This document shows positions 10,275 to 47,184 of a stretch of 64,000 nucleotides of DNA, piece by piece (position 1 is the first letter of the stretch; each line of letters opens with the position of its first letter). A model generated the notes under the pieces. It saw only the letters and a program-made list of their open reading frames with translations. It was not told the origin of the DNA and searched no databases. This DNA is from Dehalococcoidia bacterium. GTDB taxonomy: Bacteria > Chloroflexota > Dehalococcoidia > Lucifugimonadales > UBA3495. The position numbers and the translations under genes were made by a program. The stretch is taken from assembly GCA_034423115.1 (NCBI GenBank), contig DAOUJD010000033.1:1696-65695 (forward strand), written 5' to 3'.

Positions 10275-10512
10275 AACGTAACCTCGACGCATCCGATCCG
10301 GCGGGGCCAGTCCTAAACAAAAAGTGCAGTTGTGATGGATGTGGTGTTGGAAACACTAAAATAAAGACAGACAGGAGTAGTTTGAAGTCCCACGCATTAT
10401 AGCAGTCAGTTGAGCCAATTCCGGCGGATCCCGTGGGCTTGCGGCGGGGGAGTATAATGCTGCCCTGTGATCCCCCAACACGAGCGTGGGACTCCAGAGG
10501 AGGAATGTCCAG

Positions 10513-12180: not shown

Positions 12181-12507
12181 ATGAAAATCATAGCCAACGA
12201 CGTCGCCAGTGGCTGGGTTGTCCCTTGCATCATTATCGAAGTCAAACCTCGCGAGGTGCGGGACTCATATGATGGTGGAATCCTAACAGACGACGACCTC
12301 CGTCAGTTGCAGGGTTATGTAGATGCTGACTCGCGTATGGAAGAAGGGTTGGCTGGGCTGACCAACGGAACCCGGTGGCACATCCACCAGTTACAGGATG
12401 GGGATCCGTTGAAAAATTTCGACCCTATTCATGTCGATATTTTGCACGATGACCCGGGATACGCTGCCGATGTGCTTGACGTGTACATGGGGCGACAAAA
12501 TTGGTGA
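12181..12507 (+). CDS. hypothetical; resembles the C-terminal half of an HsdR_N-type PD-(D/E)xK domain
   Basis: IIIEVK ... LRQLQGYV ... GLTNGTRW; starts 10 nt after the preceding stop. Confidence 0.45.
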   Translation: MKIIANDVASGWVVPCIIIEVKPREVRDSYDGGILTDDDLRQLQGYVDADSRMEEGLAGLTNGTRWHIHQLQDGDPLKNFDPIHVDILHDDPGYAADVLDVYMGRQNW

Positions 12508-12557
12508 GGATCGGCGTGATTGTCAATATGATGCGGGGCCTGACGCGGAACCTGAAA

Positions 12558-12935
12558 ATGTCCTATGACCCCGACAACGATATTTTGTGGTTGCGCGATG
12601 GCAGTCCAAGCGACGGCAGCAGCCTTTTGGAAGAGGCGCCTTTTGCCACGATGGAGATGCGCGACGAGGAGAGCCGGGAAGCGGTCGGCGTGGAAATATC
12701 GGGCTTCAGTACCTACTTCCCGTTGCGTCGGTCTGACTACTACGAACCAACAGACACCCTCACTTTCGGAACTGGGCGCGAAACCGCTACGTTGATCGCC
12801 GAAAACAGCGACTTGGTGGCATACTGGCGGCCCGATGAATTCGCGCCCCACGATCTGGAGCCTTTTGCAGTTGACTTGCGGAATGCATCCAAGCATTTGG
12901 CGCCTTTGGTTGCGGCTTTTCCACACAAGAAATAA
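12558..12935 (+). CDS. DUF2283-like protein with C-terminal extension
   Basis: MSYDPDNDILWLRDG ... AVGVEISGFS resembles the DUF2283 pattern; start uncertain (ORF open from 12501). Confidence 0.5.
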   Translation: MSYDPDNDILWLRDGSPSDGSSLLEEAPFATMEMRDEESREAVGVEISGFSTYFPLRRSDYYEPTDTLTFGTGRETATLIAENSDLVAYWRPDEFAPHDLEPFAVDLRNASKHLAPLVAAFPHKK

Positions 12936-12986
12936 CGATCTGTTCAAACGCGCCGGGACTTTACGCGGCGTCAACACCAGGAGGTA

Positions 12987-13775
12987 ATGTCCATGTCTCT
13001 GGACGGAAAGGTAGCGTTGGTAACCGGCGCGGGCCGCGGCATGGGTCGGGCCACTGCGCTGGCGCTGGCGAATGATGGGGCGAACGTCGCGGTCACGGAC
13101 ATCATGGCCGACAACGTGGAGGAAACGGCTACGGATGTGCGGGCCACTGGTCGCCAGAGCGTGGCGATCACAGCGGACATCGGCGACGGCGACGACATCG
13201 ACCGGGTGATCGCCGAAGCGGTGAGCTCGCTGGGGCGTGTCGATATCCTGGTGAACAACGCCGGCGTCACGCGCTACCTGGACATCATGGACATCACCGA
13301 GGCTGACTGGGACCGCATTCACCGGGTGAACGCGCGGGGCGCATTCTTCGTGATGCAGCGGACCGCGCGGCAGATGATCGACCAGGGCAGCGGCGGGCGC
13401 ATCGTCAACATCGCGTCCATCGCCGGCAAGGGCTACCGGGGCACGTCCAACGCGGCCTACGCAGCCAGCAAGGGCGCGGTGATTTCTATGACGCTGATCG
13501 CGGCGCACCAGCTGGCGCGTTACGACATCAACGTGAACGCCATCTGCCCGGGCTCAACCATCACCGCGATGTCCACGAGCACGATGGAGCAGCGGGCCGC
13601 GGATGCCGGCATCTCGGTTGACGAGTTGCAGGCGCAGCGGGCGTCCAACATACCCATCGGGCGGGCCAACGAGCCGGAGGACATAGCGGCGATGGCGGCG
13701 TTCCTGGCCAGCCCCGGCGCGCGGAACATCACGGGTCAGACGATCAACGTGGACGGCGGGCTGGTGATGCACTGA
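12987..13775 (+). CDS. SDR family oxidoreductase (FabG-like)
   Basis: VTGAGRGMG, NNAG, YAASKGA; AGGAGG RBS. Confidence 0.85.
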   Translation: MSMSLDGKVALVTGAGRGMGRATALALANDGANVAVTDIMADNVEETATDVRATGRQSVAITADIGDGDDIDRVIAEAVSSLGRVDILVNNAGVTRYLDIMDITEADWDRIHRVNARGAFFVMQRTARQMIDQGSGGRIVNIASIAGKGYRGTSNAAYAASKGAVISMTLIAAHQLARYDINVNAICPGSTITAMSTSTMEQRAADAGISVDELQAQRASNIPIGRANEPEDIAAMAAFLASPGARNITGQTINVDGGLVMH

Positions 13776-13881
13776 GCAAATTAAGGTGGCTAAATTGCCG
13801 ACGGTACCACGTTTCGATATGATTGCATTTGAACACCGAGAAGGTAAAGTTTGGTAATCGCGGCATGTGAGGATATGCGTC

Positions 13882-14157
13882 ATGGACAGGCGTATCGCAG
13901 AGACCACACCAGATGCGGCGAGTAGCCGGGAGTCTGCTCCTGCTAAATGGTGGCGAGATAAGGTGAACATCGCCCTTATAGCAATCGCGGCCATAGCCGC
14001 TATTGGAATCGTAGTTGCTTGCGTCGGCGCGTTTGCCCTTGGCTCATCAACAACGGTCTGGGTAGGCGGCGGTATAGTGAGCATATCGGCGCTTGCTTGG
14101 GCAGCGTGGGCAATCGCGTTCATTGCGTTAGTAACTATTCGGAAGACGAAAAGATAA
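13882..14157 (+). CDS. hypothetical small membrane protein
   Basis: Two hydrophobic helices; GAGGA RBS before ATG 13882; AT-richer spacer; 3' end overlaps the convergent ORF by 23 nt. Confidence 0.4.
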   Translation: MDRRIAETTPDAASSRESAPAKWWRDKVNIALIAIAAIAAIGIVVACVGAFALGSSTTVWVGGGIVSISALAWAAWAIAFIALVTIRKTKR

Positions 14158-14398
14158 CCCCGCGCAGGATTACGCATACACCAGCCAGTATGATCACCCC
14201 CAATCCGGCCACGCTCATCGCGAGAGCCGCCGCCGCTAAACCCGCGCCGCCAGTCAACTTGAACACCAAGCCTGCCGCCAGGAAGATGGCAACGAAAAGG
14301 CAGCCAATAGCCAAAAATAGCCTGTAGCGCAGCGGCAAACTCAAAGCTAGGGATGCGAGGGCGGCCCATAATCCTTTGTCCGGCGACTTCATTACCAT
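14135..14398 (-). CDS. hypothetical small membrane protein
   Basis: Hydrophobic throughout (LFLAIGCLFVAIFLAAGLVF, VAGLGVIILAGVCVIL); start uncertain (14398 or 14455). Confidence 0.4.
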   Translation of the reverse strand: MVMKSPDKGLWAALASLALSLPLRYRLFLAIGCLFVAIFLAAGLVFKLTGGAGLAAAALAMSVAGLGVIILAGVCVILRGVIFSSSE

Positions 14399-19046: not shown

Positions 19047-19142
19047 CGGGCGACGATAGCCGTTTGGCGGCACCACATGCCGATGGTCGAATTGGCGCGC
19101 ATCGTTTCAAGTAAGGAGCGATTCCCAGGGAGGTTTCAATCA

Positions 19143-21080
19143 ATGGATTTCCGAAGATTGTGGCATCCACGAACCCTGCTGGCGCTGTGGGCGTTGGCGT
19201 TGACGGCCGTGATCGTTGGTTGCGGCGGGGCAACCACGACGCCGGAACCCACTGGCGGCGGCTCTACCGGCGCGGCCGCTCCGCAGGCGGCGGCAACTCC
19301 CACGCTCAACCCGTTCGCAGGCGCGGAGGCGCCGACTCCCACCGCTCCACTGAACGTTGCTCCTACTGCGGTTCCGGTGCCAACGGCCATGATGGCGGTT
19401 GACGAGCGGCCCGACTGGTGGCAGGAGGGCGAAGACAACCACTACCGGGGAGACTTCCCGCTGGTTGCCACCCACAACCCGGGCTTCTGGGACGTCCACT
19501 ACGGCGGCTCTCTGAACACAGTGCTCATCCCGTCGGGCCCGCGCTTCAACCAGATCATTGAATACAACCCCGTCAACCCCAACGAGATCATCGGCGACCT
19601 CGCCGTCAGTTGGGAGTCTTACGAGGAGGGGAACGAATTCGGCTACGTCTTCCACCTCAACCCGGACGCGCATTTCACGGACGGGCACCCGGTCACCGCA
19701 GAGGACATAGTGTTCTCGATCAACCGCATCACGCTGGGGCAGGTGGAAGAAGGTGTGCTGCGCGCTCGCACCGGGTTCCTGAACAACTTTGTCAAGCACG
19801 GCACTGGCGAGGTGATCAACGACCACACGGCGAAAATCCCCCTCAGGTTTCCCGCCTCCGGCTTCCTGCCCAACCTGGCGTCCGACTACATGAAGGTGTA
19901 CCCCAAGCACGTCGCCGAAAACATGACCCAGGAGCAGGCCAACACGGGCCTGACGCAAGAGAACGCCCTGGCTGCCATCAATGCCGGTTCTCCCGAGGCG
20001 CTCATCGGCTCCGGCCCCTGGATGCTGCGGGAATGGGAAAAGGACGTTGGCTACACCTTTGACCGCAACCCCGACTATTTCAAGACGGGCCGGCCGTTCT
20101 TTGACGGCTTGAAGATATTCCTCATCAGGGATACGGCGCGCCGCATTTCCGCTCTACAAGCCGGACAGGTGTATGGCACGTACCAACCCGTGACGGGGTC
20201 CAATCGTCCTGAGGACATGGCGCGATTGGAGGAGGACACCGACGGTCGCGTGCGTGCCGTTATCCTGGAGGACTCGGGCGTGGAGGCATGGTTCCTCAAC
20301 CACGAAAAGCCTCCCTTCGACGACCCTCGGGTCCGCCGCGCCGTGTTCCTGGCCGTCAACCGCGACAATGCCGTGGAAAAGTCGATCCTGGGATTCGGGT
20401 CTCCCGGCACTTTCTTCGCGCCCGGCGTGGTCGAGGACCTGGGTGAACTGAGGGCCAACAGTCCTGCCTTCATGCTCGACCGCGGTCCCGCGCTGGAGGA
20501 AGCGCGGGGGTTGCTGGCCGAAGCCGGTTATCCCGACGGGTTTGAGTTTACGGTCAACGTGGTCAACAGCAACCCGGCGCTGTCGATGGCAGAGGTTCTG
20601 GCGGCTCAGTTGCGCGAAGACCTGGGTCTGGAGGCTGTCCTTCAGCCCACCGACCTGGCAACCATGTACGTGGGGATGCGCGACGGTGTCGCCAACGTTG
20701 ACGGCGTTGGCACCGGCATAATCCTGCGCGACCCGGGGGACATCATCAACCAGTTCTACCTGCAGGACGTGCTTCGGAACCCGCACAACTGGCAGAACGA
20801 CCGCGTTGACGAGTTGATCGACCTGCAAAACCGCGCCATTGATCCAACCGAACGCCAAGGGCATCTTGACGAACTGGCCGGCATCCTGCATCGCGGGGAG
20901 AGCCACTGGCTGCCGGTGTTCTGGAATTCCAACGGCGGAGCGTTCGACTGTCGCATCCAGAATTACTACAACCCGCCAACCGTCCAGTTGATCAAGAAGT
21001 GGGACCATGTGTGGTGGGCCGGCGGCGAGTCGTCCGACTGCGACCACAACGCCAACTCCGAACGCGGCTACCGACCCTAG
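19143..21080 (+). CDS. ABC transporter substrate-binding lipoprotein, family 5 (peptide/nickel type), paralog 1
   Basis: Lipobox VIVGC; long SBP_bac_5-like body; GGGAGG RBS before ATG 19143. Confidence 0.85.
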   Translation: MDFRRLWHPRTLLALWALALTAVIVGCGGATTTPEPTGGGSTGAAAPQAAATPTLNPFAGAEAPTPTAPLNVAPTAVPVPTAMMAVDERPDWWQEGEDNHYRGDFPLVATHNPGFWDVHYGGSLNTVLIPSGPRFNQIIEYNPVNPNEIIGDLAVSWESYEEGNEFGYVFHLNPDAHFTDGHPVTAEDIVFSINRITLGQVEEGVLRARTGFLNNFVKHGTGEVINDHTAKIPLRFPASGFLPNLASDYMKVYPKHVAENMTQEQANTGLTQENALAAINAGSPEALIGSGPWMLREWEKDVGYTFDRNPDYFKTGRPFFDGLKIFLIRDTARRISALQAGQVYGTYQPVTGSNRPEDMARLEEDTDGRVRAVILEDSGVEAWFLNHEKPPFDDPRVRRAVFLAVNRDNAVEKSILGFGSPGTFFAPGVVEDLGELRANSPAFMLDRGPALEEARGLLAEAGYPDGFEFTVNVVNSNPALSMAEVLAAQLREDLGLEAVLQPTDLATMYVGMRDGVANVDGVGTGIILRDPGDIINQFYLQDVLRNPHNWQNDRVDELIDLQNRAIDPTERQGHLDELAGILHRGESHWLPVFWNSNGGAFDCRIQNYYNPPTVQLIKKWDHVWWAGGESSDCDHNANSERGYRP

Positions 21081-21107
21081 ACTGCATCGTACCGACGGCA
21101 ATACTGC

Positions 21108-21137
21108 AAGGGCGGCCCTCGGGTCGCCCTTCTTTTT
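21108..21137 (+). terminator. rho-independent terminator
   Basis: AAGGGCGGCCC tcg GGGTCGCCCTT (11 bp, one G-U) followed by CTTTTTG. Confidence 0.7.
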
Positions 21138-21243
21138 GCCTTCGCCGGCGGCGCTCCATCCGGGCCTGAAAGATCCACGTTAGCGCATCATCAATAAGGG
21201 CTATGTTTGATAATAATACTGCTACAGTATCATCAATTCGGAA

Positions 21244-21272
21244 TTGACAATCTTTCCGCGCGTGAGTAGCAT
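21244..21272 (+). promoter_or_regulatory. sigma70-like promoter of SBP paralog 2
   Basis: TTGACA (21244-21249) N17 TAGCAT (21267-21272). Confidence 0.55.
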
Positions 21273-21368
21273 CGTCCCCCGCTGGCAGTCCCGGACTGTC
21301 GAGCGTAATTTTTTGTTTCGGCGCCAAGCCGATTCAGGCAAGTGCGATATTCACGGAGGACTCACTCA

Positions 21369-23309
21369 ATGGATTTGCGACGAATCTGGCATCCAAGAAC
21401 CTTGCTTGCGTTAGGGGCGCTGGCCGTGACCGGTGTGTTGGTCGCCTGCGGTGGCGCGACTACGACCACCCCGACCACCACCGGCGATACGTCCGGCGGC
21501 GCGAGCGCACCGGCGGCGCAAGCAGCCACCCCCACCCTCAACCCCTTCGCCGGCGAACAGGAACCGACGCCCACCGCTCCGCTGGACGTGGCTCCTACCG
21601 CAGTGCCGGTGCCCACAGCAATGGTGGCCGTTGACCAGCGGCCGGACTGGTGGCAGGAAGGCGAGGCCCAGCACTACAGGGGAGACTTCCCACTGGTGGC
21701 GACCAGCAACCCAGGGTTCTGGGACGTTCACTACGGCGGTTCCATGAACACCGTGCTGATCCCCTCTGGTCCCCGGTTCAACCAGATCCTCGAGTACAAC
21801 CCGGTCAACCCCGGTGAAATCATCGGCGACCTGGCGGTTAGCTGGGAGTCCTACGAAGATGGCGACGAGTTCGGGTACATCTTCAACCTGCACCCGGAAG
21901 CCACCTTCTCGGACGGAGTACCGGTGACCGCAGAGGACGTCGTGTTCTCCATTGACCGTATCACGCTGGGACAGGTCGAGGAAGGCGTGCTGCGCGCACG
22001 CACCGGCTTCCTGAACAACTTCGTGGTTCACGGCACTGCCGAGGCCATTGACGACAAGACGGTCAAGATCCCCCTGCGCTTCCCGGCCGCCGGTTTCCTG
22101 CCCAACCTGGCCTCCGACTACATGAAGGTGTACCCCAAACACGTGGGCGAGAACCTGACCCAGGAGCAGGCCAACCAGGGCAAGACCCAGGCCGAGGCCG
22201 TCTCTGCCATCAACGCGGGCACGCCGAACAGTCTGATCGGCTCCGGCCCGTGGATGCTGCGTGAGTGGGAGAAGGACGTGGGGTACTCCTACGACCGGAA
22301 CCCCAATTACTTCAAGGAAGGTCGTCCGTTCTTTGACGGCCTCCGGATATTCCTGATCCGCGACACCGCCCGCCGTCTCTCGGCGCTGCAGGCCGGACAG
22401 GTCTTCGGCACCTACCAACCCGTGACCGGCAGCAACCGTCCCGAGGACATGGCCCGCCTGGAAGAAGACACCGGCGGCCGTGTGAGAGCCGTAATACTCC
22501 GAGCCTCGGGTATCCAGGCCTTCTTCCTGAACCACGACAAGGCTCCGTTTGACGACGCCCGCGTCCGCCGCGCCTTCTACCTGGGCCTGGACCGGGACCT
22601 GGGCGTTGAGAAGTCGATTCTAGGATTCGGTGAGCCAGGCACGTTCTTCGCGCCCGGCGTTGTGGAAGACCTTGAGGACCTGCGCGCCAACAACTCGGCC
22701 TACGGAGATCGTGACGCCGCTCTGACCGAGGCCCGTCAGCTCCTGACGGAAGCCGGCTATCCAGACGGCTTCGAGATCACGGTCAACGTGGTGAACAGCA
22801 ACCCCTCGCTGTCCAGCGCAGAGGTTGTGGCGCCGCAAATGCGCGAAGACCTGAACATCAACATCGTCATCGAGCCCACCGACCTCGCCACGATGTACGT
22901 CGGGATGCGAGACGGCGTTGCCAACATGGACGCTGTCGGTACCGGCATCATCCTGCGCGACCCGGGCGACATCATCAACCAGTTCTACCTGCAGGACGTG
23001 CTGCGCAATCCGCACAACTGGCAGAATGATCGGGTTGACGAGCTGATCAACCTGCAGAACCGCGAGGTTGACCCCGCCGCGCGCCAGGCGCACCTGGAAG
23101 AGCTGGCCGGCATCCTCCACCAAGGAGAGAGCCACTGGCTGCCCTACTTCTGGTACTCCAGCGGCGGCGCGTTTGACTGCCGTATCCGCAACTACCACTA
23201 CCCACCCACGGTTCAGCTCATCAAGAAGTGGGACCACGTGTGGTGGGCCGGCGGCGAATCGTCCGCTTGCGCCCACGCCGCCAACGCGGACCGGGGCTAC
23301 CAGCCATAG
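21369..23309 (+). CDS. ABC transporter substrate-binding lipoprotein, family 5, paralog 2
   Basis: Lipobox VLVAC; collinear with paralog 1, with long identical blocks (SGPWMLREWEKDVGY, TGIILRDPGDIINQFYLQDVLRNPHNWQNDRVDEL). Confidence 0.85.
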   Translation: MDLRRIWHPRTLLALGALAVTGVLVACGGATTTTPTTTGDTSGGASAPAAQAATPTLNPFAGEQEPTPTAPLDVAPTAVPVPTAMVAVDQRPDWWQEGEAQHYRGDFPLVATSNPGFWDVHYGGSMNTVLIPSGPRFNQILEYNPVNPGEIIGDLAVSWESYEDGDEFGYIFNLHPEATFSDGVPVTAEDVVFSIDRITLGQVEEGVLRARTGFLNNFVVHGTAEAIDDKTVKIPLRFPAAGFLPNLASDYMKVYPKHVGENLTQEQANQGKTQAEAVSAINAGTPNSLIGSGPWMLREWEKDVGYSYDRNPNYFKEGRPFFDGLRIFLIRDTARRLSALQAGQVFGTYQPVTGSNRPEDMARLEEDTGGRVRAVILRASGIQAFFLNHDKAPFDDARVRRAFYLGLDRDLGVEKSILGFGEPGTFFAPGVVEDLEDLRANNSAYGDRDAALTEARQLLTEAGYPDGFEITVNVVNSNPSLSSAEVVAPQMREDLNINIVIEPTDLATMYVGMRDGVANMDAVGTGIILRDPGDIINQFYLQDVLRNPHNWQNDRVDELINLQNREVDPAARQAHLEELAGILHQGESHWLPYFWYSSGGAFDCRIRNYHYPPTVQLIKKWDHVWWAGGESSACAHAANADRGYQP

Positions 23310-23347
23310 GCGACGCAGCGGTTCGGACGAGCCAACAGCACGACTCC

Positions 23348-23375
23348 GGCCGGCCCTTTACAAAAAGGGCCGGCC
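23348..23375 (+). terminator. perfect 11-bp GC hairpin after SBP paralog 2
   Basis: GGCCGGCCCTT tacaaa AAGGGCCGGCC; no U-tract. Confidence 0.45.
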
Positions 23376-23429
23376 CAATGTGTATAATTACCACCCTACA
23401 CACCCAATTCCGCCGGCAGGAGTTGAGGA

Positions 23430-24389
23430 ATGTCTCAGTACCTGATTAGAAGATTGCTCCTCTTCATCCCGACGATGTTGCTGGCCACCATCCTGGTGTT
23501 CGCCTTGTTCTCCATCGTCCCGGGGGACGCCGCCGTATTCCTGCTTACTGGAGAGGACGCCGGCGGGCGGGTGACCAACGAGGACTTCGAGCGTCTGCGG
23601 GAGGACCTGGGCCTCGACCGACCGATCTACATCCAGTACGCCGACTGGCTGTGGGGAGTCGTTAGGGGAGACCTGGGTGATTCTCTTTACTACGGTACTC
23701 CCTTCGGCTTCGAACTCATCGAGCGGTTCGCCAGAACCTTTGAACTTGCGGTGCTGGCCATCGTAATGGCGTTCGTCGCTGCTGTCCCGTTGGGAATTCT
23801 GTCGGCGATGAAACAGGACTCCGGAATTGACTACGCCAGCCGGGTCATTGCGTTGTTGGGCATCGCCATGCCGACGTTCTGGATCGGGGTGCTGGTCATC
23901 TACGCTCTCGTGTATGGGACAGGATGGCTGCCGCCACTAGAGTACGCCCATTTATGGGAGGACCCGATACAGAACCTTAAGTTGATGGTGCTGCCGGCAG
24001 CGGTGATCGGGTTCCATGACATGGCCTTCACCGCCCGCGTCACCAGATCGGCGATGCTGGAGGTGATGCGCGAGGACTACATGCGCACGGCTCGATCCAA
24101 GGGCCTGCGCGAGTGGGTCGTGGTGGGTCGCCACGCGCTGAAAAACGCGATGCTGCCGGTGATCACCGTGTCCGGCTACCAGTTCGGACGACTGCTGGGC
24201 GGCGTGATTATCGTCGAGCAGATTTTCGTCGTTCCCGGCGTGGGCAAGTTCCTCATTGACGCCATCAACCACCGGGACTTCCCGGTGATCCAGGGCGTGA
24301 TCCTGATGACGGCCGCCGTGGTGCTGCTGCTCAACCTGATCATAGATATGCTCTACGGCATCCTGGACCCACGGATCCGGTACTCGTAA
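23430..24389 (+). CDS. ABC transporter permease (DppB/OppB-like)
   Basis: 6 TM segments; EAA-type loop YMRTARSKGL. Confidence 0.85.
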   Translation: MSQYLIRRLLLFIPTMLLATILVFALFSIVPGDAAVFLLTGEDAGGRVTNEDFERLREDLGLDRPIYIQYADWLWGVVRGDLGDSLYYGTPFGFELIERFARTFELAVLAIVMAFVAAVPLGILSAMKQDSGIDYASRVIALLGIAMPTFWIGVLVIYALVYGTGWLPPLEYAHLWEDPIQNLKLMVLPAAVIGFHDMAFTARVTRSAMLEVMREDYMRTARSKGLREWVVVGRHALKNAMLPVITVSGYQFGRLLGGVIIVEQIFVVPGVGKFLIDAINHRDFPVIQGVILMTAAVVLLLNLIIDMLYGILDPRIRYS

Positions 24390-24441
24390 ACGCACGTACG
24401 CCAACGATAATTGCAACAGGTTCTCATCGGCAGGTGTTGCC

Positions 24442-25350
24442 ATGATTGATCAGACCACGGAACAGGCGACTTTAACCCGGGAGGAGCTTCCCGCACCGGG
24501 GTTAACCTCGCGGGCATTGACCGGTTTCTTCCGGTTCGTGCGGACGAAACCCCTGGGCGCGGTCGGCGGGGTTATCGTCCTGCTGCTGGTGGTTGTGGCC
24601 CTCCTCGCGCCGGTGCTATCGCCCTACGATCCTCGCTCCACACCCGCCCTGCCCTGGGAGGCGCCCAACGCCAACTACCTGCTGGGCGCGGACTACATTG
24701 GTCGGGACGTATTGAGTCGCCTGATTTACGGCGCGCGCATTTCGCTATACGTCGGTTTGGGCAGCGTGGTGGTGGGCATCACCGGCAGTTTCATCATCGG
24801 CGTGGCGCTCACCTACATCGGCGGCATAGTGGACACCGTCTCGCAGCGCGTCGTGGACGCCCTGATGTCGCTGCCGGGCCTGCTGATCGCCCTGGCGATC
24901 ATGGCCGTGGTTACGCCGTCCCTGAACACCGTGATCCTGGCCATCGTAATCGGCATGATTGCACCCGTGATCAGAACGGTGCGGTCACAGGTGTTGTCGC
25001 TGCGGGAGCTGGACTACGTGACGGCGGCGACGGCAATCGGCGCCCCACCCTGGCGCATAATCCTGCGCCACATCGTGCCCAACTGTTTTGCCACGTACCT
25101 CGTGCTGGCGACGTACTACCTCGGTTTCGCCATCATCATTGAGTCGTCGCTGTCGTTCCTGGGCGTGGGCACTCCGCCCGACCAGCCAAGCTGGGGCGGG
25201 ATGCTGGTGCGCGCGGCTTCGGCGCACGTCAAGAGTGGCCCCTGGCTGGCGATATGCCCCGGTCTCGCCATCTTCATGGTGGTGATGGGGTTCAACCTGC
25301 TGGGCGACGCCCTGCGCGACGTGTTCGACCCGCGCCTGCGTGGCCGGTAG
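24442..25350 (+). CDS. ABC transporter permease (DppC/OppC-like)
   Basis: N-terminal anchor plus BPD_transp_1-like core (ELDYVTAATAIGA). Confidence 0.85.
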   Translation: MIDQTTEQATLTREELPAPGLTSRALTGFFRFVRTKPLGAVGGVIVLLLVVVALLAPVLSPYDPRSTPALPWEAPNANYLLGADYIGRDVLSRLIYGARISLYVGLGSVVVGITGSFIIGVALTYIGGIVDTVSQRVVDALMSLPGLLIALAIMAVVTPSLNTVILAIVIGMIAPVIRTVRSQVLSLRELDYVTAATAIGAPPWRIILRHIVPNCFATYLVLATYYLGFAIIIESSLSFLGVGTPPDQPSWGGMLVRAASAHVKSGPWLAICPGLAIFMVVMGFNLLGDALRDVFDPRLRGR

Positions 25351-25675: not shown

Positions 25676-26311
25676 ATGTTTTTCACACCATTACAACACA
25701 CGCTGCATAACCAACGCTTTGGGCGCACACTGTTGCTCACGGTGCTGGCCGCGCTGGTGTGCGTGATACTGGCCTGTACGCCAACGCAGGGGACCCCGAG
25801 CGGCGAGCCGTGGGAAACCACACTCGCACCCACCGACGCCATCGCGCCGACCCTCGCTCCCGCCGCCGCGCTGCCCACTGCGGAGTTGGCTGACACCGTG
25901 ACGCCAATGCCCACGGCACGAGTGGAATCGGCGGCTACCACGCTGCCGGCCGCCACGTCGCTGCCTGTGGCAAGCGAGGGGAATGTGATGATGGTCGAGG
26001 CCGAAGAAGCGGAACGGACCCGCAGCAAATACGAAAGCCTACTGAGCGCAACGTGGGCGACCGACTTCTCCCGCACCACCATTTCGTTCGACGAGATCAT
26101 GACCGGCGGCCCGCCCAAGGACGGCATACCGGCCATCGATGACCCGCAGTTTGAATCCGTCGCTGATGCTGACGCATGGCTGGACGACCTTGAGGCGGTG
26201 CAGGTGGTGGACCTGAACGGCGACGCCCGGGCGTATCCGGTGCAGATCATGGTGTGGCACGAGTTGGTCAACGACACCGTGGGAGGTGAGCCCGTCGTCA
26301 TCACGTATTGA
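25676..26311 (+). CDS. DUF3179 family lipoprotein, N-terminal part ending at an in-frame TGA
   Basis: Lipobox ILAC; PPKDGIPAIDDPQF ... GEPVVITY then TGA at 26309-26311. Confidence 0.6.
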   Translation: MFFTPLQHTLHNQRFGRTLLLTVLAALVCVILACTPTQGTPSGEPWETTLAPTDAIAPTLAPAAALPTAELADTVTPMPTARVESAATTLPAATSLPVASEGNVMMVEAEEAERTRSKYESLLSATWATDFSRTTISFDEIMTGGPPKDGIPAIDDPQFESVADADAWLDDLEAVQVVDLNGDARAYPVQIMVWHELVNDTVGGEPVVITY

Positions 26312-26332
26312 CCACTGTGCAATACCGCCTTC

Positions 26333-27085
26333 GTGTTCAGGCGGACGGTTGACGGCGAGACACTGGACTTCGGGACGACGGGCGCGCTGCGGGACAGCAA
26401 CCTGCTGATGTACGACCGGCAGACCGAATCCTGGTGGCAGGAGTTCGGCGGCGAGGGAGTAATCGGCCACTACGCCGGCCAAAAGCTGGAACAACTGTAC
26501 CTGTCCATCGCGTCTTGGGGTGATTTCAAAGCCATGTACCCGGACGGGCAGGTGCTCTCACGGCCGGATTCAGGCAGGTCATACGGCGCCAACCCCTACG
26601 CGGGTTATGATCGTCCTGGCAACTCTCCCTTCCTTTTCGACGGTCCGGAGGATCCCCGCCTGCCGGCCGTGGAAAGGGTGGTCGCGCTGGAGAGGGGCAG
26701 CGACGCGTGGGCGGTGTCGTTCACCACGCTGGCGGAGGAACGCGTGGTATCGGCTTCGGTGGCCGGCGAGGACATCGTGGTTTTCTGGACGCCCGGCACG
26801 GCGTCGGCCCTGGACCGAGGTTCGATCAAATCGGGACGCGACGTGGGCACCGCCGGCATCTTCTCGCCGGTAGCGCCGGATGGCGATATGCTGACGTTCA
26901 CCGCAGATGCTGAAGGTACCATCACCGACGAGCAAACCGGCAGCGCGTGGAACATCTTTGGGAACGCCACCAGCGGGCCGCTGGAGGGAACGCAACTGAC
27001 ACCGGTTCCCGGGCGCATCGGGCAGCTATGGTTCTCATGGGCGGTTTACAGACCCGATACGGTGGTGTACAACGGAACACGGTGA
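26333..27085 (+). CDS. DUF3179 family protein, C-terminal part (same frame as 25676..26311; open from 26312)
   Basis: PLCNTAFVF ... FGTTGALRDSNLLMYDRQTESWWQ directly continues the domain after the TGA. Confidence 0.6.
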   Translation: MFRRTVDGETLDFGTTGALRDSNLLMYDRQTESWWQEFGGEGVIGHYAGQKLEQLYLSIASWGDFKAMYPDGQVLSRPDSGRSYGANPYAGYDRPGNSPFLFDGPEDPRLPAVERVVALERGSDAWAVSFTTLAEERVVSASVAGEDIVVFWTPGTASALDRGSIKSGRDVGTAGIFSPVAPDGDMLTFTADAEGTITDEQTGSAWNIFGNATSGPLEGTQLTPVPGRIGQLWFSWAVYRPDTVVYNGTR

Positions 27086-27202
27086 ATTATTACATGAGGT
27101 CTCTATTGACAATGGCTATATCGGATTACAGACTGTAACCATCTTACGAGTATGTACGTTGCTTACACTCGGCAGACGGTGACGCCAAACTCAGAGACTT
27201 CT

Positions 27203-28231
27203 ATGGTTGATATAAACATCAAAGTCCCCGCTATCGAAAAGTTACTAGATTACACCGCTTCTGGTATCGGCGCTGTCGCGGGCCCAATATTTCTTCCTTG
27301 GCAAGCACTTTGGGAAGGGAAAGCGAAGCGTATTTCCGCTAAGACCGACGCCGATGTGCGCAGTATCCAAGCTAAATCAGAAGCTGACAGCCTGTCCATC
27401 ATTGCTGGCGCCCAAGCAGAAGCTCGGCGTTTCCTGACGACGACGGACGCACAGGTTAGTGGTACGGCGGATATCACACGCGACGATGTTGTCCAACACA
27501 TTGAGTTTCAGGGAAAGAAGCGATTAGCAAACGCCAAGGACATAGTGGCGGTCGCCGCTGACGTACTCGGCGACAAGGAAGTCACCGACCACGAGCCTGA
27601 CCCCGACTGGACCGCGCGATTTTTCGATTACGCTCAAGACGTTAGTTCCGAGGGTTTAAAGTCGATCTGGGCGCGAATCCTTGCTGGCGAGGTAGAAAAC
27701 CCGGGCCGGACTTCGCTGCGCACCTTATCGGCTCTTCGAGATATGACCCAGCGCGATGCTGAGATCTTCCATAACATGATGGAGTACGTGGTGAGCGATT
27801 TCATTCTGATCGATTACTGCGCGACCGCTTCCGGCAACAAAAAAGACGCGGAGATCATAGCTCTCAACAATATGGATCTGGCCTTTCCCAGCATGGTGGT
27901 AAACAGAAACATTAATTTGGGTGACGATGGAGCGTGGGCAATACAGCATCACGGCCACGTGTTGAAAATCGAAGGTACCGCAAACACAAAGCTCGACTCA
28001 TTTGCGCTGTCGCACGCGGTTTTAACACCTCAAGGTCGGGAGTTGGCTGCTTTCTGCACACACGAACCGAATCTTCAATATTTGGGGTTGCTCGCTGGAT
28101 GGTTGGCAGAGCACAACTGTACTCTTTCACTGGCACCCCTCATTTCAGTGGACGAAAACGGGCTGATGCACTACTCGACAAATGCGGTTCGCGTGATTGA
28201 ACCCGTAACTCACGCGGATATAATCGCATAA
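27203..28231 (+). CDS. DUF2806 domain protein
   Basis: PDWTARFFDYAQDVSSEGLKSIWARILAGEVENPGRTSLRTLSALRDMTQRDAEIF matches the DUF2806 core as I recall it; AT-richer islet. Confidence 0.6.
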   Translation: MVDINIKVPAIEKLLDYTASGIGAVAGPIFLPWQALWEGKAKRISAKTDADVRSIQAKSEADSLSIIAGAQAEARRFLTTTDAQVSGTADITRDDVVQHIEFQGKKRLANAKDIVAVAADVLGDKEVTDHEPDPDWTARFFDYAQDVSSEGLKSIWARILAGEVENPGRTSLRTLSALRDMTQRDAEIFHNMMEYVVSDFILIDYCATASGNKKDAEIIALNNMDLAFPSMVVNRNINLGDDGAWAIQHHGHVLKIEGTANTKLDSFALSHAVLTPQGRELAAFCTHEPNLQYLGLLAGWLAEHNCTLSLAPLISVDENGLMHYSTNAVRVIEPVTHADIIA

Positions 28232-37995: not shown

Positions 37996-39726
37996 ATGAC
38001 CACCACCGACACCACACCCAACCGCCTCTACTTCGGCGACAACCTCGACATCCTGCGCCAGCACGTCGCCGACGAGTCGGTTGACCTGATCTACCTGGAC
38101 CCGCCCTTCAACTCCAACGCCACCTACAACGTGCTGTTCCGCGAGCGGTCGGGCGAGGAATCGGCGGCGCAGATCACCGCCTTCGAGGACACCTGGCACT
38201 GGGGTTGGGAGTCGGAGACGGCCTACCAGGACGTGGTGACCCAGGGGCCGGAGAAGGTCGGCAGTCTGCTGTCCGCCCTGCGCCAGTTCCTGGGCCAGAA
38301 CGACATGATGGCCTACCTCACCATGATGGCCCAGCGCATGACCGAACTGCACCGCGTCCTCAAACCCACGGGCAGCATCTACCTCCACTGCGACCCGACG
38401 GCGAGCCACTATCTGAAACTGCTGCTGGATGCGGTGTTTGGGGCAACGAATTTTCGTAGTGAGATAGTTTGGAAAAGGACCAGTGCCCATAGCGATGCCA
38501 AACAAGGCCGTAAACAACATGGGCGTATCCACGATATCTTGCTGTATTACACAAAGAGCGCAGAATGGACTTGGAACGTCATATACACGCAATACGATCA
38601 AGAATACGTGGACAACTTTTATCGCCACGTAGAATCCGGTAACGGGCGCAGGTATCGGGTTGGTGATCTCACTGCCGCTAAACCGGGAGGAGACACTACA
38701 TACGAGTGGAGGATCAAACGCCCCAAAGAAGGAGAATGGGAAGCTGATGTAACAAACGAATGGCAAACCCCACGGGCAGATTGGGAATACAAAGGAGTGC
38801 CACCCTATCAAGGCCGCTACTGGGCCTTTTCGCAAGAAAACATGAGGCAATTCGCACGCGAAGGCCGATTGGTTTATTCCAAATCAGGCACGCCCCAATA
38901 CAAACGGTATCTCGACGAAATGCCTGGGGTGCCGTTGCAAGACTGGTGGGATGACATTCGCCCCATAAGTCCGAGGGCCCGTGAGCGGCTCGGCTACCCG
39001 ACGCAGAAGCCGGAGGCGCTGCTGGAGCGGATCATCAACGCCAGCAGCAACGAGGGCGACGTGGTGCTGGACCCCTTCTGCGGGTGCGGCACCGCCACCG
39101 TGGCCGCCGAGCGGCTCAACCGCCGCTGGATCGGCATCGACATCACCCACCTTGCCATCACGCTGGTGCGCCACCGCCTGCGGGACAGCTTCGGCGACGA
39201 GCTGCGGCCCTATGAGATCGTCGGGCAACCCACGGATACCGGCAGCGCGGGCGCCCTGGCCGAGCACGACCGCTACCAGTTCGAGTGGTGGGCGCTGGGC
39301 CTGGTGGACGCCCGGCCGGCCAACGACCGGCGACGGGGCGCGGACGCCGGCGTGGACGGCTACATCAACTTCTTCGACGACAACAGCGGCCGGCCCAAGC
39401 GCATCATCGCGCAGGTGAAGAGCGGCCACGTCAACCGGGGGATGATCGCCACCCTGAAGGGCGACATGGAGCGGGAGCACGCGACGCTGGGGGTGTTCAT
39501 CACGCTGCAACCACCAACGGAGCCCATGCGTCAGGAAGCGTTGTCCGCCGGCATCTACACGCCCGAGCACTTCCCCGACCAGCAGTACCCGCGCCTCCAG
39601 ATCCTCACCATCGACCAACTGCTGGCCGGTGCCAGCGTGGCCTACCCGAGAGGCGGCGTGCCGGCCACGTTCCGGCAGGCGCCCCGCCGTCGCCGCAGCC
39701 AGGGCCAACAAAGCGCGCTCGTGTAG
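37996..39726 (+). CDS. beta-class (N6A/N4C) DNA methyltransferase fused to a C-terminal Mrr-like PD-(D/E)xK nuclease domain
   Basis: Motif IV IYLDPPF near the N-terminus, motif I VLDPFCGCGTATVAAERL later (IV before I). C-terminus FEWWALGLV...GADAGVDGY...IIAQVKSG...GVFITL resembles Mrr_cat. Confidence 0.8.
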   Translation: MTTTDTTPNRLYFGDNLDILRQHVADESVDLIYLDPPFNSNATYNVLFRERSGEESAAQITAFEDTWHWGWESETAYQDVVTQGPEKVGSLLSALRQFLGQNDMMAYLTMMAQRMTELHRVLKPTGSIYLHCDPTASHYLKLLLDAVFGATNFRSEIVWKRTSAHSDAKQGRKQHGRIHDILLYYTKSAEWTWNVIYTQYDQEYVDNFYRHVESGNGRRYRVGDLTAAKPGGDTTYEWRIKRPKEGEWEADVTNEWQTPRADWEYKGVPPYQGRYWAFSQENMRQFAREGRLVYSKSGTPQYKRYLDEMPGVPLQDWWDDIRPISPRARERLGYPTQKPEALLERIINASSNEGDVVLDPFCGCGTATVAAERLNRRWIGIDITHLAITLVRHRLRDSFGDELRPYEIVGQPTDTGSAGALAEHDRYQFEWWALGLVDARPANDRRRGADAGVDGYINFFDDNSGRPKRIIAQVKSGHVNRGMIATLKGDMEREHATLGVFITLQPPTEPMRQEALSAGIYTPEHFPDQQYPRLQILTIDQLLAGASVAYPRGGVPATFRQAPRRRRSQGQQSALV

Positions 39727-43021: not shown

Positions 43022-43624
43022 ATGACCACAACTGTCGCGCCACCAGTAATTTCGCCGACCGAACATGAATGTGGCCGTTCCCGCCGGCTGTTCACCGTGG
43101 ACGAGCTCCACGTCATGGACGCGGCCGGCATATTTGACAACGGTGAGCGCATCGAACTGCTGGATGGGGAGATTATCGTAATGCCGCCAATCGGGGACCC
43201 CCATGCTGATGGAACCGATCGACTGGGAGGAGACCTAACCTACACACTCCACGGCAGGGCACGAGTACGTGTCCAAGGGCCGGTGAGGATCAACGACGAC
43301 AATTTGTTGCAACCTGACGTCGCCGTTCTCCTATTGCGTGAGGACTATCATCGTCGGGCGCCCACGCCGGCGGATGTGCTGCTGCTGATCGAGGTGGCCG
43401 ACACGTCGCTGGAGTTTGACCGGGAGGTGAAGTTGACGCGGTATGCCGCCGCCGGTATCCCCGAGGTGTGGATCGTGAACCTGCGGATGCGTCAGGTGGA
43501 GGGCCACTCGGATCCGGTGGACGGGACGTACCGCAGCCGGCGAGTGGTGACGGCGGAGGGGCGCATCGGCCCACTGGCGTTTCCGGACGTTGCGCTGGCG
43601 GTGTCCGATTTCCTGCTGGAATGA
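43022..43624 (+). CDS. Uma2 family (DUF820) endonuclease-like protein
   Basis: ELLDGEIIVMPP ... PDVAVL ... LLIEVADTS ... YAAAGIPEVWIV. Confidence 0.8.
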   Translation: MTTTVAPPVISPTEHECGRSRRLFTVDELHVMDAAGIFDNGERIELLDGEIIVMPPIGDPHADGTDRLGGDLTYTLHGRARVRVQGPVRINDDNLLQPDVAVLLLREDYHRRAPTPADVLLLIEVADTSLEFDREVKLTRYAAAGIPEVWIVNLRMRQVEGHSDPVDGTYRSRRVVTAEGRIGPLAFPDVALAVSDFLLE

Positions 43625-45687: not shown

Positions 45688-47184
45688 ATGAACAAAGTCG
45701 AAGCGCTCAAAGCCGAGAAAGACGGACTGGACATCTTGAACGACATTCCCAACTTCAGCAAGGAGGGTTGGGAATCCATCCCCGCGGATGACCGGGACCG
45801 CCTCAAGTGGGCCGGCATCTTCTTCCGACGGCAGACTCCAGGCCGGTTCATGATGCGCATCCGGATTTCCAACGGCATCAGCAACTCGGCCCAGTTCCGC
45901 GCCATCGCCGGCATCAGCGACGACTACGGCAAGAGGTTCGCCGACCTCACCACGCGCCAGCAGATTCAGTTGCGCGAGTTCAGCATCGAGCAGGTGCCGG
46001 ATATCTGGCGGCGCTTGGACGACGTTGGCCTGATCTCGCTGCAAACGGGCATGGACAACATCCGAACCGTCGTGGGCTGCCCGGCAGCCGGCCTGACTCC
46101 CCACGAGTTGCTGGACGCATCACCCATCGCCCGCGAGTTCACCGACATGTTCGTGGGCAACCGGGAGTACACCAACCTGCCGCGCAAGTTCAACGTCACC
46201 ATCACGGGATGCCTGGAAAACTGCACCCACGTTGCCACCCAGGACATCGCCATGACTCCGGCCGTCAAGACGGTTGAGGGTCAGGAAATCGTCGGGTTCA
46301 ACGTGGCGGTGGGCGGCAAGATGGGGTCCGGAGGCTACACGCCAAACACGCCGCTGGATCTGTTCGTAAGGCCCGAAGAAGCCGCCGAAATCTGCAACCA
46401 CATCGTGCTGATCTTCCGCGACCACGGTTCACGCGAAGCCCGCAACAAGGTGCGCCTGGCTTTCCTGATTGCCGAGTGGGGAGCCGAAAGGTTCCGCGCC
46501 GAAATCGAAGCGCGGGCGGGACGTACGCTGTTGTCCGCCGGCAGGGACGCCGCGACAGATAACCACACGAGCCACATCGGGATCTTCCCACAGAAGCAGG
46601 CCGGCCTGAACTACGTGGGCCTGTGTGTACCGGTGGGTCGCATCACCACGGCGCAACTGCAGGGCGTGGCCGACCTGGCCGACGAGTACGGGGACGGTGA
46701 AATTCGTATCACGCCGGAGCAGAACCTGATCATCCCCAACGTACCCGACGAACGGCTGGAAGCGCTGACTGGCGAACCATTGCTGCAAACTTTGTCCTAT
46801 CGGCCGTCGAACATCACGCGGGGAACGGTGAGCTGCACCGGCATCGATTACTGCCACTTCTCGCTGATCGAGACCAAGGAGCGCGCCACGGAAACGGCCC
46901 GCGTGCTGGAACAGCGGCTGCCCAATATCGGCCCGGTGTCGCTGTATTGGTCCGGCTGTGCCAACGGGTGCGCCAACCACGCCCTGGCGGACATCGGTCT
47001 GGTGGGCAAGCGAGTACGAATCGACGACGAAATCGTGGAGGCGGTGGACATCTACCGGGGAGGCGCAGCGGCACGCGCCACTAATGGCAAGCCCCCGGTG
47101 CCGGTGATGAGCAACGTCGCCTGTTCAGATCTGCCCCAGGTGCTGGAAGAGATGCTGACGCGACAGGAAGGCGACGTTTGCTGA
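45688..47184 (+). CDS. ferredoxin-dependent sulfite/nitrite reductase (siroheme, 4Fe-4S)
   Basis: NIR_SIR repeats; Cys cluster VSCTGIDYC ... WSGCANGC. Confidence 0.85.
   Translation: MNKVEALKAEKDGLDILNDIPNFSKEGWESIPADDRDRLKWAGIFFRRQTPGRFMMRIRISNGISNSAQFRAIAGISDDYGKRFADLTTRQQIQLREFSIEQVPDIWRRLDDVGLISLQTGMDNIRTVVGCPAAGLTPHELLDASPIAREFTDMFVGNREYTNLPRKFNVTITGCLENCTHVATQDIAMTPAVKTVEGQEIVGFNVAVGGKMGSGGYTPNTPLDLFVRPEEAAEICNHIVLIFRDHGSREARNKVRLAFLIAEWGAERFRAEIEARAGRTLLSAGRDAATDNHTSHIGIFPQKQAGLNYVGLCVPVGRITTAQLQGVADLADEYGDGEIRITPEQNLIIPNVPDERLEALTGEPLLQTLSYRPSNITRGTVSCTGIDYCHFSLIETKERATETARVLEQRLPNIGPVSLYWSGCANGCANHALADIGLVGKRVRIDDEIVEAVDIYRGGAAARATNGKPPVPVMSNVACSDLPQVLEEMLTRQEGDVC

Follow-up and report, generated by a model that had tools for sequence, protein, structure and literature searches.

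DUF3179 (PF11376) is catalogued as a prokaryotic selenoprotein family with the motif UxxC/T (PMC9312934, PMC13188914). In their passages on this family, both works credit the selenoprotein to Zhang & Gladyshev 2007 (PMC1976440), where it derives from the Olavius algarvensis delta-1 symbiont. MBW1804167.1 and MDJ0986319.1 are published examples, and the product name 'DUF3179 domain-containing (seleno)protein' is in use at NCBI. More generally, many selenoprotein families carry the CxxC/UxxC motif of extracytoplasmic thiol:disulfide oxidoreductases. In the bacterial SECIS/SelB system, for which fdhF of E. coli is the prototype, the stem-loop lies within the coding region right past the UGA. The bSECISearch consensus for such elements comprises a loop of 3-9 nt, an upper stem of 4-16 bp, a UGA-loop distance of 16-37 nt and an MFE of at most -7.5 kcal/mol (PMC13188914, Fig. 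2), and a subset of bSECIS elements fails this consensus according to the same review. In BSepDB, Dehalococcoidia MAGs are entered with 46 and 49 selenoprotein genes, implying that this lineage uses Sec heavily.

Here we describe a DUF3179 gene from a Dehalococcoidia (Chloroflexota) bacterium, found within 64 kb of a 274,645-bp contig; this 64-kb stretch was analysed as a whole and is referred to below as the window. Like the catalogued DUF3179 selenoproteins, it encodes a full-length domain, places the candidate Sec first in a U-x-x-C motif aligned to C-P-L-C, and carries a hairpin directly past the UGA. It differs in its host, which belongs to Dehalococcoidia/SAR202 and is not a deltaproteobacterial symbiont. 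DUF3179 is already known as a selenoprotein family, and the finding is correct but ordinary; it leaves the current understanding of Sec recoding unchanged.

The DUF3179 gene and its in-frame TGA

Two ORFs, 25676..26311 and 26333..27085, lie in one frame, and the sole stop between them is the TGA at 26309-26311 (codon context ...ACG TAT TGA CCA CTG TGC AAT...). The read-through product, 469 aa in length, is DUF3179 from end to end: with Cys placed at the TGA, it matches positions 1-292 of the 292-position PF11376 profile (E 7e-99) and scores 331.3 bits against a gathering cut-off of 27, with the whole domain covered. No NCBIfam model fits the read-through protein. Public gene calls give the same gene as two products, of 211 and 250 aa, each assigned to PF11376.

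The preliminary description of this locus had reported these two ORFs, their common frame and the lone TGA, and re-reading the sequence returned exactly the same coordinates. It had also placed the TGA exactly on a Cys codon of a T-Y-C-P-L-C motif with the second Cys kept, giving U-P-L-C. Both points are borne out, given that in 97 aligned homologs the column falls within VT[FY]-C-P-L-C-NTA with both Cys residues invariant, and that the codon for the second Cys is TGC in the window. Moreover, 111 Cys-form genes carry TGY at the codon matching the window TGA. The features of the locus are collected in the table.

Table. Features of the DUF3179 locus, in window coordinates.
Feature	Position	Strand	Remarks
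Probable DUF3179 selenoprotein gene, complete	25676..27085	+	469 codons plus stop; one in-frame candidate Sec-UGA; PF11376 match
Predicted signal peptide and lipobox V-I-L-A-C	25676..25777	+	Cys34 (25775-25777) is the predicted lipidation site; pattern match
Codon -1, TAT, T-ending	26306..26308	+	Directly 5' of the candidate Sec-UGA
Candidate Sec-UGA, residue 212	26309..26311	+	First Cys column of C-P-L-C; TGA in 76 species representatives
Partner Cys215 of U-P-L-C, TGC	26318..26320	+	Invariant in 77 Sec-form and 111 Cys-form genes, the search patterns themselves having demanded TGY at this codon
Frozen eight-codon block (ACC GCC TTC GTG TTC AGG CGG ACG)	26324..26347	+	Near-zero synonymous variation; probable RNA-level footprint of the SECIS
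Candidate bacterial SECIS hairpin	26325..26344	+	5' arm CCGCCU 26325-26330; 8-nt loop 26331-26338 (UCGUGUUC); 3' arm AGGCGG 26339-26344

We consider it highly probable (about 0.93) that this TGA is a Sec-UGA served by a bacterial SECIS, and that the gene yields a U-P-L-C lipoprotein of the DUF3179 family. Read in this manner, the gene encodes one selenoprotein and not the two fragments of the public gene calls, and the same split annotation probably holds for the 76 orthologs described below. The best full-length database matches are Cys forms at only 45-58% identity, and Sec-form orthologs of up to 98% identity exist in genomes. SAR202/Dehalococcoidia are abundant in the sea and in association with sponges, and corrected calls would matter when their selenoproteins are counted.

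Conservation of the TGA codon and the downstream hairpin

Orthologs were sought across 185,579 species genomes with a degenerate pattern in which TGA was required. This returned 85 loci, comprising 76 true DUF3179 genes and 9 chance matches, the latter being about the number expected for such a pattern. The 76 TGA-carrying species-level genomes are nearly all Dehalococcoidia, Chloroflexota or SAR202, and many of the assemblies are chromosome-level MAGs from other projects. The encoded proteins share 46-98% identity with the window protein, and because of this divergence the 76 loci do not represent one contaminating sequence. In each of the 64 loci complete to the end of the gene, 252-270 codons stay open past the TGA. 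The codon directly 5' of the TGA is TTT or TAT in 67 of 77 Sec-form genes compared to 30 of 111 Cys-form genes, while ~10% of the remaining Phe/Tyr codons of the same Sec genes are T-ending.

The hairpin, which written as DNA consists of CCGCCT, the loop TCGTGTTC and AGGCGG, begins 13 nt past the UGA; 19 nt separate the codon from the loop, which opens 22 nt past the U of the UGA. Its loop of 8 nt, stem of 6 bp, spacing of 19 nt, MFE of -9.1 kcal/mol for the hairpin alone and GU in the loop all agree with the bSECIS consensus. However, the first G of the loop, followed by U, stands at position 3, whereas the consensus has it at position 1 or 2, and the two agree only when the loop-closing U·C juxtaposition is counted as stem. 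A further difference from the bacterial SECIS is the lack of a conserved lower stem; the single-sequence MFE structure hinted at one, which was rejected on the grounds that its partner Val codon, +13, is free to vary. At gathering threshold across the whole window, and at E<=10 across 26200-26500, Rfam returned no SECIS or other relevant family.

Taken singly, the hairpin is no better than chance. A 72-nt single-sequence fold was unexceptional against shuffles (z = +1.04), and 52 of 111 Cys-form control genes hold some stem of >=6 bp within the allowed interval. What exceeds chance is the cross-species conservation. The hairpin register is kept in 73 of 77 sequences, and among 75 distinct sequences 97.1% of the hairpin cells are paired, compared to 29-46% in slid controls. 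None of the 111 Cys-form homologs has a hairpin in the same register, and none exceeds 4 of the 6 pairs. Compensatory changes were observed at pair 17-36 (CG in 63 sequences, GC in 9) and at pair 22-31 (UA in 70, CG in 1). The covariation score of the hairpin was matched by 0 of 500 shuffles, with the events themselves few, namely one C-G to G-C swap common to 9 related sequences and one U-A to C-G change. In three divergent orthologs (L058, L068 and L074) the hairpin is shifted by one register and has a 9-nt loop, with GGUC in L068 and L074 and GUG in L058. RNAalifold, applied to the 77-sequence alignment, missed the hairpin and returned another, weak consensus (-2.68 kcal/mol). The near-invariance of the stem and the shifted register of three sequences are the probable reason; pairing was counted on the named structure in place of the RNAalifold consensus.

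The coding sequence across the hairpin is constrained at synonymous sites as well. Synonymous entropy falls to 0-0.5 bit across codons +5 to +12, compared to 1.2-1.9 bit at most 4-/6-fold codons elsewhere, and the codons flanking this block vary freely, as do the 111 Cys-form genes across the hairpin region. Codon +10 encodes R (AGG) in the Sec form and D or E in the Cys forms, implying that the protein sequence has been bent to form the 3' arm. The result is an unusually clean and measurable SECIS footprint within a coding sequence: synonymous sites are frozen in eight codons, and the 3' arm owes its formation to an Asp/Glu-to-Arg change. The hairpin was found as the preliminary description had drawn it, including its arms, the start of its loop 22 nt past the U and the GU within the loop. 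That description had named orthologs with TGA in this column and a conserved hairpin as a check; the TGA is shared by 76 species, and the hairpin is in register in 73 of 77 sequences.

Proposed Sec insertion and alternative explanations

Our model is that the hairpin acts as a bacterial SECIS during translation, where it would recruit SelB·GTP·Sec-tRNA(Sec) to the ribosome, and the UGA at 26309-26311 would be read as selenocysteine and not as a stop. SelB and tRNA-Sec would accordingly be at work in the genome from which the window derives. The UGA at 27083-27085, which the mRNA carries in addition, has no such element and would terminate translation. The exported product would then be lipid-anchored via Cys34 on the outward side of the bacterium's membrane, and the mature protein would contain a single chalcogen pair, U212-P-L-C215. 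U212 and C215 would most likely form a redox-active selenylsulfide centre, or alternatively a Sec/Cys(+His) metal site, and this centre could possibly be serviced by extracytoplasmic TlpA-like thioredoxins.

Several other explanations for the in-frame TGA have to be weighed against Sec insertion. A single substitution separates TGA from TGC and TGT, the public gene calls give two fragments, and the single-sequence hairpin is unremarkable, all of which would fit a recent nonsense mutation of a Cys codon in a decaying gene, the second option raised by the preliminary description. This option is refuted by the 76 species-level genomes that have TGA in this column, with proteins as little as 46% identical, and by the 3' half that stays intact in each of the 64 assessable loci; the downstream protein is also conserved, its synonymous variation being of the kind that purifying selection typically leaves, and we regard a pseudogene as most improbable. 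An error at 26309-26311 would be conceivable for a window drawn from a metagenome assembly, but 76 assemblies independent of one another have TGA here, and this explanation is refuted and just as improbable as the former. Conversely, the selenocysteine (U-x-x-C) candidate put forward in the same description is backed by the 76 species with TGA, the intact downstream ORF, the conserved hairpin and the suppressed synonymous variation.

It is also conceivable that the UGA is passed without selenocysteine, either by near-cognate read-through with Trp or Cys or by termination and re-initiation at GTG 26333 to yield two polypeptides, with the conserved hairpin stimulating read-through or re-initiation and not serving as a SECIS. 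UGA-C is generally held to be a weak termination context, and Sec machinery was not found within the window: selA, selB and selD are absent from its Pfam-annotated genes, and a tRNA scan detected no tRNA in the 64 kb and, among the orthologous loci, no tRNA-Sec in the first 60. However, the UGA replaces precisely one Cys of a CxxC motif, a classic Sec/Cys exchange, in a catalogued UxxC selenoprotein family and a selenoprotein-rich lineage, and, apart from the position of the loop G, the spacing, stem length, loop size, energy and GU loop of the hairpin fit a bSECIS. Re-initiation would furthermore leave the C-terminal fragment with no signal peptide, and, judging from the model of a Cys homolog, would cut a single domain between neighbouring beta-strands. 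We therefore consider passage without selenocysteine very unlikely. Genome-wide reassignment of UGA to sense (code 4 or 25-like) has nothing beyond the in-frame TGA itself in its favour, is refuted and carries a negligible probability. Of the 27 ORFs with Pfam support in the window, 8 end in TGA, among them 45688..47184 (NIR_SIR, stop 47182-47184), in line with the earlier claim that TGA is a genuine stop elsewhere in the window, and it also closes the DUF3179 gene itself and 24 of 64 Sec-form orthologs. A coarse and unvalidated screen of the 64 kb, based on GC by codon position, passed a single further in-frame TGA flanked on either side by a coding signature; this TGA, at 6191-6193 on the minus strand, was taken to be a probable antisense artefact. 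A same-frame ORF pair at 12429..14369 on the minus strand was likewise considered as a selenoprotein and rejected as an Arg-rich antisense artefact.

Fold, neighbours and possible function of the protein

Lipoproteins were predicted by the pattern [LIVMFWSTAG](2)-[LIVMFYSTAGCQ]-[AGS]-C, modelled on PROSITE PS51257, after an N-terminal hydrophobic signal. The window protein fits this pattern with VILAC, ending at Cys34, and a hydrophobic stretch followed by the lipobox was found, as a pattern match only, in 70 of 73 Sec-form orthologs. Cys215 is the only Cys of the mature protein in 69 of the 73. Taken together, these comparisons put a single Sec/Cys pair, borne by a lipoprotein predicted to be exported, at the heart of what DUF3179 does. 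To our knowledge, no catalytic activity has been described for DUF3179.

The AlphaFold model of the closest Cys homolog (P0005) is all-beta. A Foldseek search with this model returned no full-length PDB match, and the family profile found nothing among PDB sequences. DUF3179 proteins resemble oxidoreductases of the TlpA/ResA/DsbA type with CxxC/UxxC motifs in that the Sec/Cys pair is two residues apart and the location is extracytoplasmic, and in that Cys-form DUF3179 genes are fused or adjacent to TlpA-like thioredoxin genes. In contrast, the all-beta model is not thioredoxin-like, no Pfam thioredoxin-family match was obtained, and no thioredoxin fold occurs among the 50 Foldseek matches listed. 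A TlpA-like neighbour is present in only ~13% of loci and is absent from the window.

A weak local likeness was observed to the Rieske-type ferredoxin fold (2qpz, 5bok, 3gce), an all-beta domain of ~105-125 residues, with Foldseek probabilities up to 0.96 and a target TM of ~0.5, but with E-values of only 0.05-0.5. DUF3179 has an invariant His 17 residues N-terminal to the C/U-x-x-C, a spacing that resembles the Rieske arrangement, C-x-H...C-x-x-H. Compared to this ligand set, DUF3179 is without the first Cys and the last His, retaining only His...C/U-x-x-C. No PF00355 match was obtained, and an hhalign comparison with the window's own Rieske protein was negative, which speaks against membership among the Rieske [2Fe-2S] proteins.

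An unlikely proposal is that the N-terminal all-beta domain of DUF3179 is a Rieske-fold derivative with a Sec metal site and that the hairpin belongs to a lineage-specific class of bSECIS. In such a protein the cluster-binding loops may have been remodelled to a His and U/C-x-x-C, with Sec binding a metal, or acting as a metal-coupled redox centre, on the outward side of the membrane, and TlpA-like thioredoxins may keep the Sec site reduced, by analogy with Sco/CuA maturation. Such a class of bSECIS would be marked by the 8-nt UCGUGUWC loop, the lack of a lower stem and the selected U directly 5' of the UGA, and would be read by a Dehalococcoidia SelB of altered specificity.

As for the genomic surroundings, one Cys-form locus adjoins a different type of ABC transporter from the Opp/Dpp-type transporter found upstream of the Sec-form genes, and a functional link to the latter was set aside, the arrangement being treated as clade synteny. 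Among the Sec-form loci, the upstream Opp/Dpp-type transporter is syntenic in at least 46 of 76.

The interrupted reading frame and its orthologs

The preliminary description had joined two ORFs lying in the same frame with only a TGA between them, and had placed this TGA on the first Cys of a C-P-L-C motif in a DUF3179 lipoprotein. Both observations were confirmed. The ORF coordinates were exact, the TGA is the sole intervening stop (GTC ATC ACG TAT TGA CCA CTG TGC AAT ACC GCC TTC GTG TTC AGG CGG ACG), and the complete 469-aa product, with Cys set at the TGA, matched the whole PF11376 (DUF3179) profile of Pfam (1-292/292, E 7e-99). Across 97 aligned homologs the TGA column falls in VT[FY]-C-P-L-C-NTA, with both Cys invariant.

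A degenerate scan for T-[YF]-TGA-P-L-C-N-[TS]-A over 185,579 species, each represented by a single genome, returned 85 loci. Of these, 76 were true DUF3179 genes with TGA at the first Cys column (Sec forms, as distinct from Cys forms, which have TGY there), and the other nine were chance matches, approximately the number expected from the information content of the pattern. Almost all Sec-form loci are labeled Dehalococcoidia, Chloroflexota/Chloroflexi or SAR202, and many are chromosome-level MAGs. The window's own genome is absent from the 76, since the nearest locus, L006 (OZ241987.1), is only ~85% identical to the window in DNA across 8 kb.

Coordinates of the features discussed (window positions unless a locus is named)
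Feature	Position	Strand	Remark
DUF3179 gene	25676-27085	+	split in public calls; locus L210, 12273-13682
Upstream ORF	25676-26311	+	211 aa
Downstream ORF	26333-27085	+	250 aa
Codon -1	26306-26308	+
In-frame TGA	26309-26311	+
Hairpin 5' arm	26325-26330	+	CCGCCT
Hairpin loop		+	TCGTGTTC
Hairpin 3' arm	26339-26344	+	AGGCGG
Codon +10	26339-26341	+	AGG
Ordinary TGA stop	27083-27085	+
Shifted stems, Sec-form loci L058, L068, L074	TGA +14 to +33		CGGCC/GGCCG, CGGCU/AGCCG, CGGCC/GGUCG
TlpA-like gene, Cys-form locus L206	3336-3974
TlpA-like gene, Cys-form loci L207, L208	5480-6004
Further in-frame TGA	6191-6193	-
Same-frame ORF pair	12429-14369	-	TGA-separated
Gene opposite the ORF pair	12987-13775	+
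Opp/Dpp-type cluster	19077-25350	+
DUF2806 gene	27152-28231	+
Defence/mobile-element genes	7143-8099	-
	9540-10292	-
	37996-39726	+
	43022-43624	+
	57695-58579	-

The downstream hairpin as an RNA element

The hairpin reported in the preliminary description was found at its positions. On its own it does not rise above chance, as a 72-nt segment gave z = +1.04 against shuffled sequence, an unbroken stem of 6 bp or more within the SECIS-permitted interval occurred in 52/111 Cys-form control genes, and no Rfam family matched. The case for a SECIS is carried by comparative evidence, not by the single hairpin. When the 77 Sec-form sequences (the window gene and its 76 orthologs; TGA plus 54 nt) were aligned without gaps, the helix formed by columns 17-22 with 31-36 was paired in 97.1% of cells, compared to 29-46% when the 3' arm was slid by 1-3 columns, and all six same-register pairs formed in 73/77. 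The outer pair was C-G in 63 and G-C in 9 distinct sequences, the swap coupling ACC-to-AGC (Thr to Ser) with CGG-to-CGC, and the inner U-A pair became C-G in one sequence; none of 500 column shuffles reached the observed covariation score. Synonymous entropy among Sec-form orthologs was 0-0.5 bit per codon at +5 to +12, counted from the TGA (ACC GCC TTC GTG TWC AGG CGG ACG), and 1.2-1.9 bit for most four- and six-fold codons on either side of this block. Blind RNAalifold on the Sec-form alignment did not recover the helix.

Cys-form controls were drawn from metagenomes with the same pattern carrying TGY for TGA (at least 120 loci, 111 usable DUF3179 genes). The same-register hairpin was absent from these, never exceeding four of six pairs (n=111), and their synonymous sites vary freely over the hairpin region. 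The protein differs as well: the 3'-arm stretch reads F-V-[YF]-R-R-T in Sec forms and [ILV]-[VA]-F-[DE]-R-[RT] in Cys forms, with Phe rather than Ile, Leu or Val at codon +7, and Arg rather than Asp/Glu at codon +10, a change that supplies the AGG pairing with CCU. It appears that the putative SECIS dictates the amino-acid sequence of the strand under the hairpin, the coding sequence being bent to the RNA structure. Codon -1 ends in T in 67/77 Sec forms (TTT 44, TAT 23, TAC 9, TTC 1), in 30/111 Cys forms, and in ~10% of the other Phe/Tyr codons of the same Sec-form genes; a selected U-UGA-C context upstream of the proposed Sec codon is suggested. We regard as modestly new the frozen eight-codon footprint of the candidate SECIS, the residue change that builds its 3' arm, and the preference for a T-ending codon before UGA.

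The most divergent Sec-form orthologs (L058, L068 and L074; 46-48% identity) break the main register yet fold into an equivalent hairpin of 5 bp that is offset by one position and has a 9-nt loop. These loops contain GUG or, in L068 and L074, GGUC, the motif that the E. coli fdhF SECIS carries in its loop. The shifted stems point to turnover of the predicted SECIS within the DUF3179 family.

Set against the published bacterial SECIS consensus (PMC13188914, Fig. 2), the window hairpin has an apical loop of 8 nt (required, 3-9 nt), an upper stem of 6 bp (4-16 bp), a UGA-to-loop spacing of 19 nt (16-37 nt) and an MFE of -9.1 kcal/mol (<= -7.5). Strictly read, it departs from the requirement that loop position 1 or 2 be a G, its first G standing at position 3, followed by U; some bacterial SECIS elements fall outside the consensus (PMC13188914).

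Decoding of the TGA and annotation of the family

Two readings had been offered for this TGA, a selenocysteine in U-x-x-C, which was preferred, and a fresh nonsense mutation. The data cannot be accounted for by a fresh nonsense mutation, a decayed gene (pseudogene) or an error of assembly: TGA occupies the same column in 76 species genomes at protein identities of 46-98%, and 252-270 codons stay open after it in 64/64 loci whose gene end lies inside the retrieved DNA. Reassignment of UGA to sense was also rejected. TGA terminates 8/27 Pfam-supported ORFs in the window, where it had already been described as a genuine stop, and an ordinary TGA stop ends the DUF3179 gene itself and 24/64 orthologs. 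Judged from comparative sequence, the preferred reading of the TGA as a selenocysteine codon is right, and conservation of UGA, element and downstream ORF across 76 species is hard to explain without functional decoding. Among the window genes there are no SelA, SelB or SelD domains, the 64-kb window holds no tRNA, and no tRNA-Sec was found in the first 60 orthologous loci scanned, so that support for the Sec machinery lies at the lineage level only. In BSepDB, the ten bacteria richest in selenoprotein genes include Dehalococcoidia MAGs, with 49 and 46 such genes (PMC13326102). In a study of sponge symbionts with SAR202 among its bins, most of the symbiont bins carried both SelA and SelB (PMC5649159).

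A coarse GC-by-codon-position screen of the window gave only one further in-frame TGA flanked on each side by a coding signature, which was set aside as a putative antisense artefact. A TGA-separated ORF pair without a Pfam match was rejected as a second selenoprotein candidate because its Arg-rich translation is typical of antisense to a real gene.

DUF3179, with motif UxxC/T, is tabulated among prokaryotic selenoproteins in two reviews (PMC9312934, PMC13188914), and NCBI names one homolog 'DUF3179 domain-containing (seleno)protein'; the kind is therefore already known, and the window gene is a further member. The 2026 review refers for DUF3179 to Zhang & Gladyshev 2007, on Olavius algarvensis symbionts (PMC1976440), and the entry order in the review tables indicates that it is probably their 'OS_HP1'. 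On the contig from which the window derives (ENA ERZ23495130, NGUY21-1_SAMN17524321_METAG-scaffold_114, 274,645 bp), public annotation splits the gene into proteins of 211 and 250 aa, both PF11376. Full-length protein-database matches to the read-through product were Cys forms only (45-58% identical), and the protein search yielded no full-length ortholog above 60% identity, though genomes hold Sec forms of up to 98%. This suggests that gene callers generally split Sec-form orthologs, and the clade appears to be systematically mis-annotated.

Possible redox context and gene neighborhood

The N-terminus carries a hydrophobic segment and lipobox (VILAC), followed by a Pro/Thr/Ala-rich linker and the DUF3179 domain; the segment and lipobox were matched by pattern in 70/73 Sec-form orthologs. 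In 69/73, the C of U-P-L-C is the sole Cys of the mature protein, so the Sec/Cys pair would be its only chalcogen centre. Two Cys-form proteins (P0038, P0088) have a TlpA-like thioredoxin domain fused at the C-terminus (WAGxCPxCR), and at Cys-form loci L206, L207 and L208 a TlpA-like AhpC-TSA/Redoxin gene (WxxxCPxCR) comes next after DUF3179, with overlapping stop and start codons at L207 and L208. A cytochrome c gene lies upstream at L206. These associations of Cys forms hint at a pathway of thiol redox or metallation outside the cytoplasm. In a low-sensitivity survey, a TlpA-like ORF lay within 4 kb at 10/77 Sec-form and 16/120 Cys-form loci; there is none in the window.

The closest Cys homolog, P0005 (60% identity over the domain), was modeled confidently with AlphaFold2 as a largely beta structure (pLDDT 89, pTM 0.81) that had no full-length Foldseek match in the PDB. 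The sole recurring resemblance, weak and local, was to Rieske-type ferredoxins (P0005 residues ~135-245; probability up to 0.96, target TM ~0.5, E 0.05-0.5), and sequence and profile tests of a Rieske relationship were negative. The invariant His of a W-H-E motif lies 17 residues N-terminal to C-P-L-C, a spacing similar to that of Rieske ligands. We infer that U-P-L-C may be either a selenylsulfide redox centre outside the cytoplasm or a metal site of the Sec/Cys(+His) type.

Directly upstream of DUF3179 is an Opp/Dpp-type ABC transporter cluster in which two SBP_bac_5 binding proteins in tandem accompany two permeases, and no ATPase gene adjoins them. Its synteny with DUF3179 holds at 46/76 Sec-form loci or more. 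Between DUF3179 and a Glu/Leu/Phe/Val dehydrogenase gene stands a DUF2806 gene of 52% GC, compared to 64-67% in its neighbors; it is missing from all 76 orthologous loci and seems to have been inserted recently in the window genome alone. The window also contains dispersed defence or mobile-element genes, comprising Abi_2 (GC low, 51%), two Uma2-family endonucleases, an N6_N4 methyltransferase fused to Mrr_cat/NA-iREase1, and an IS1-like transposase.
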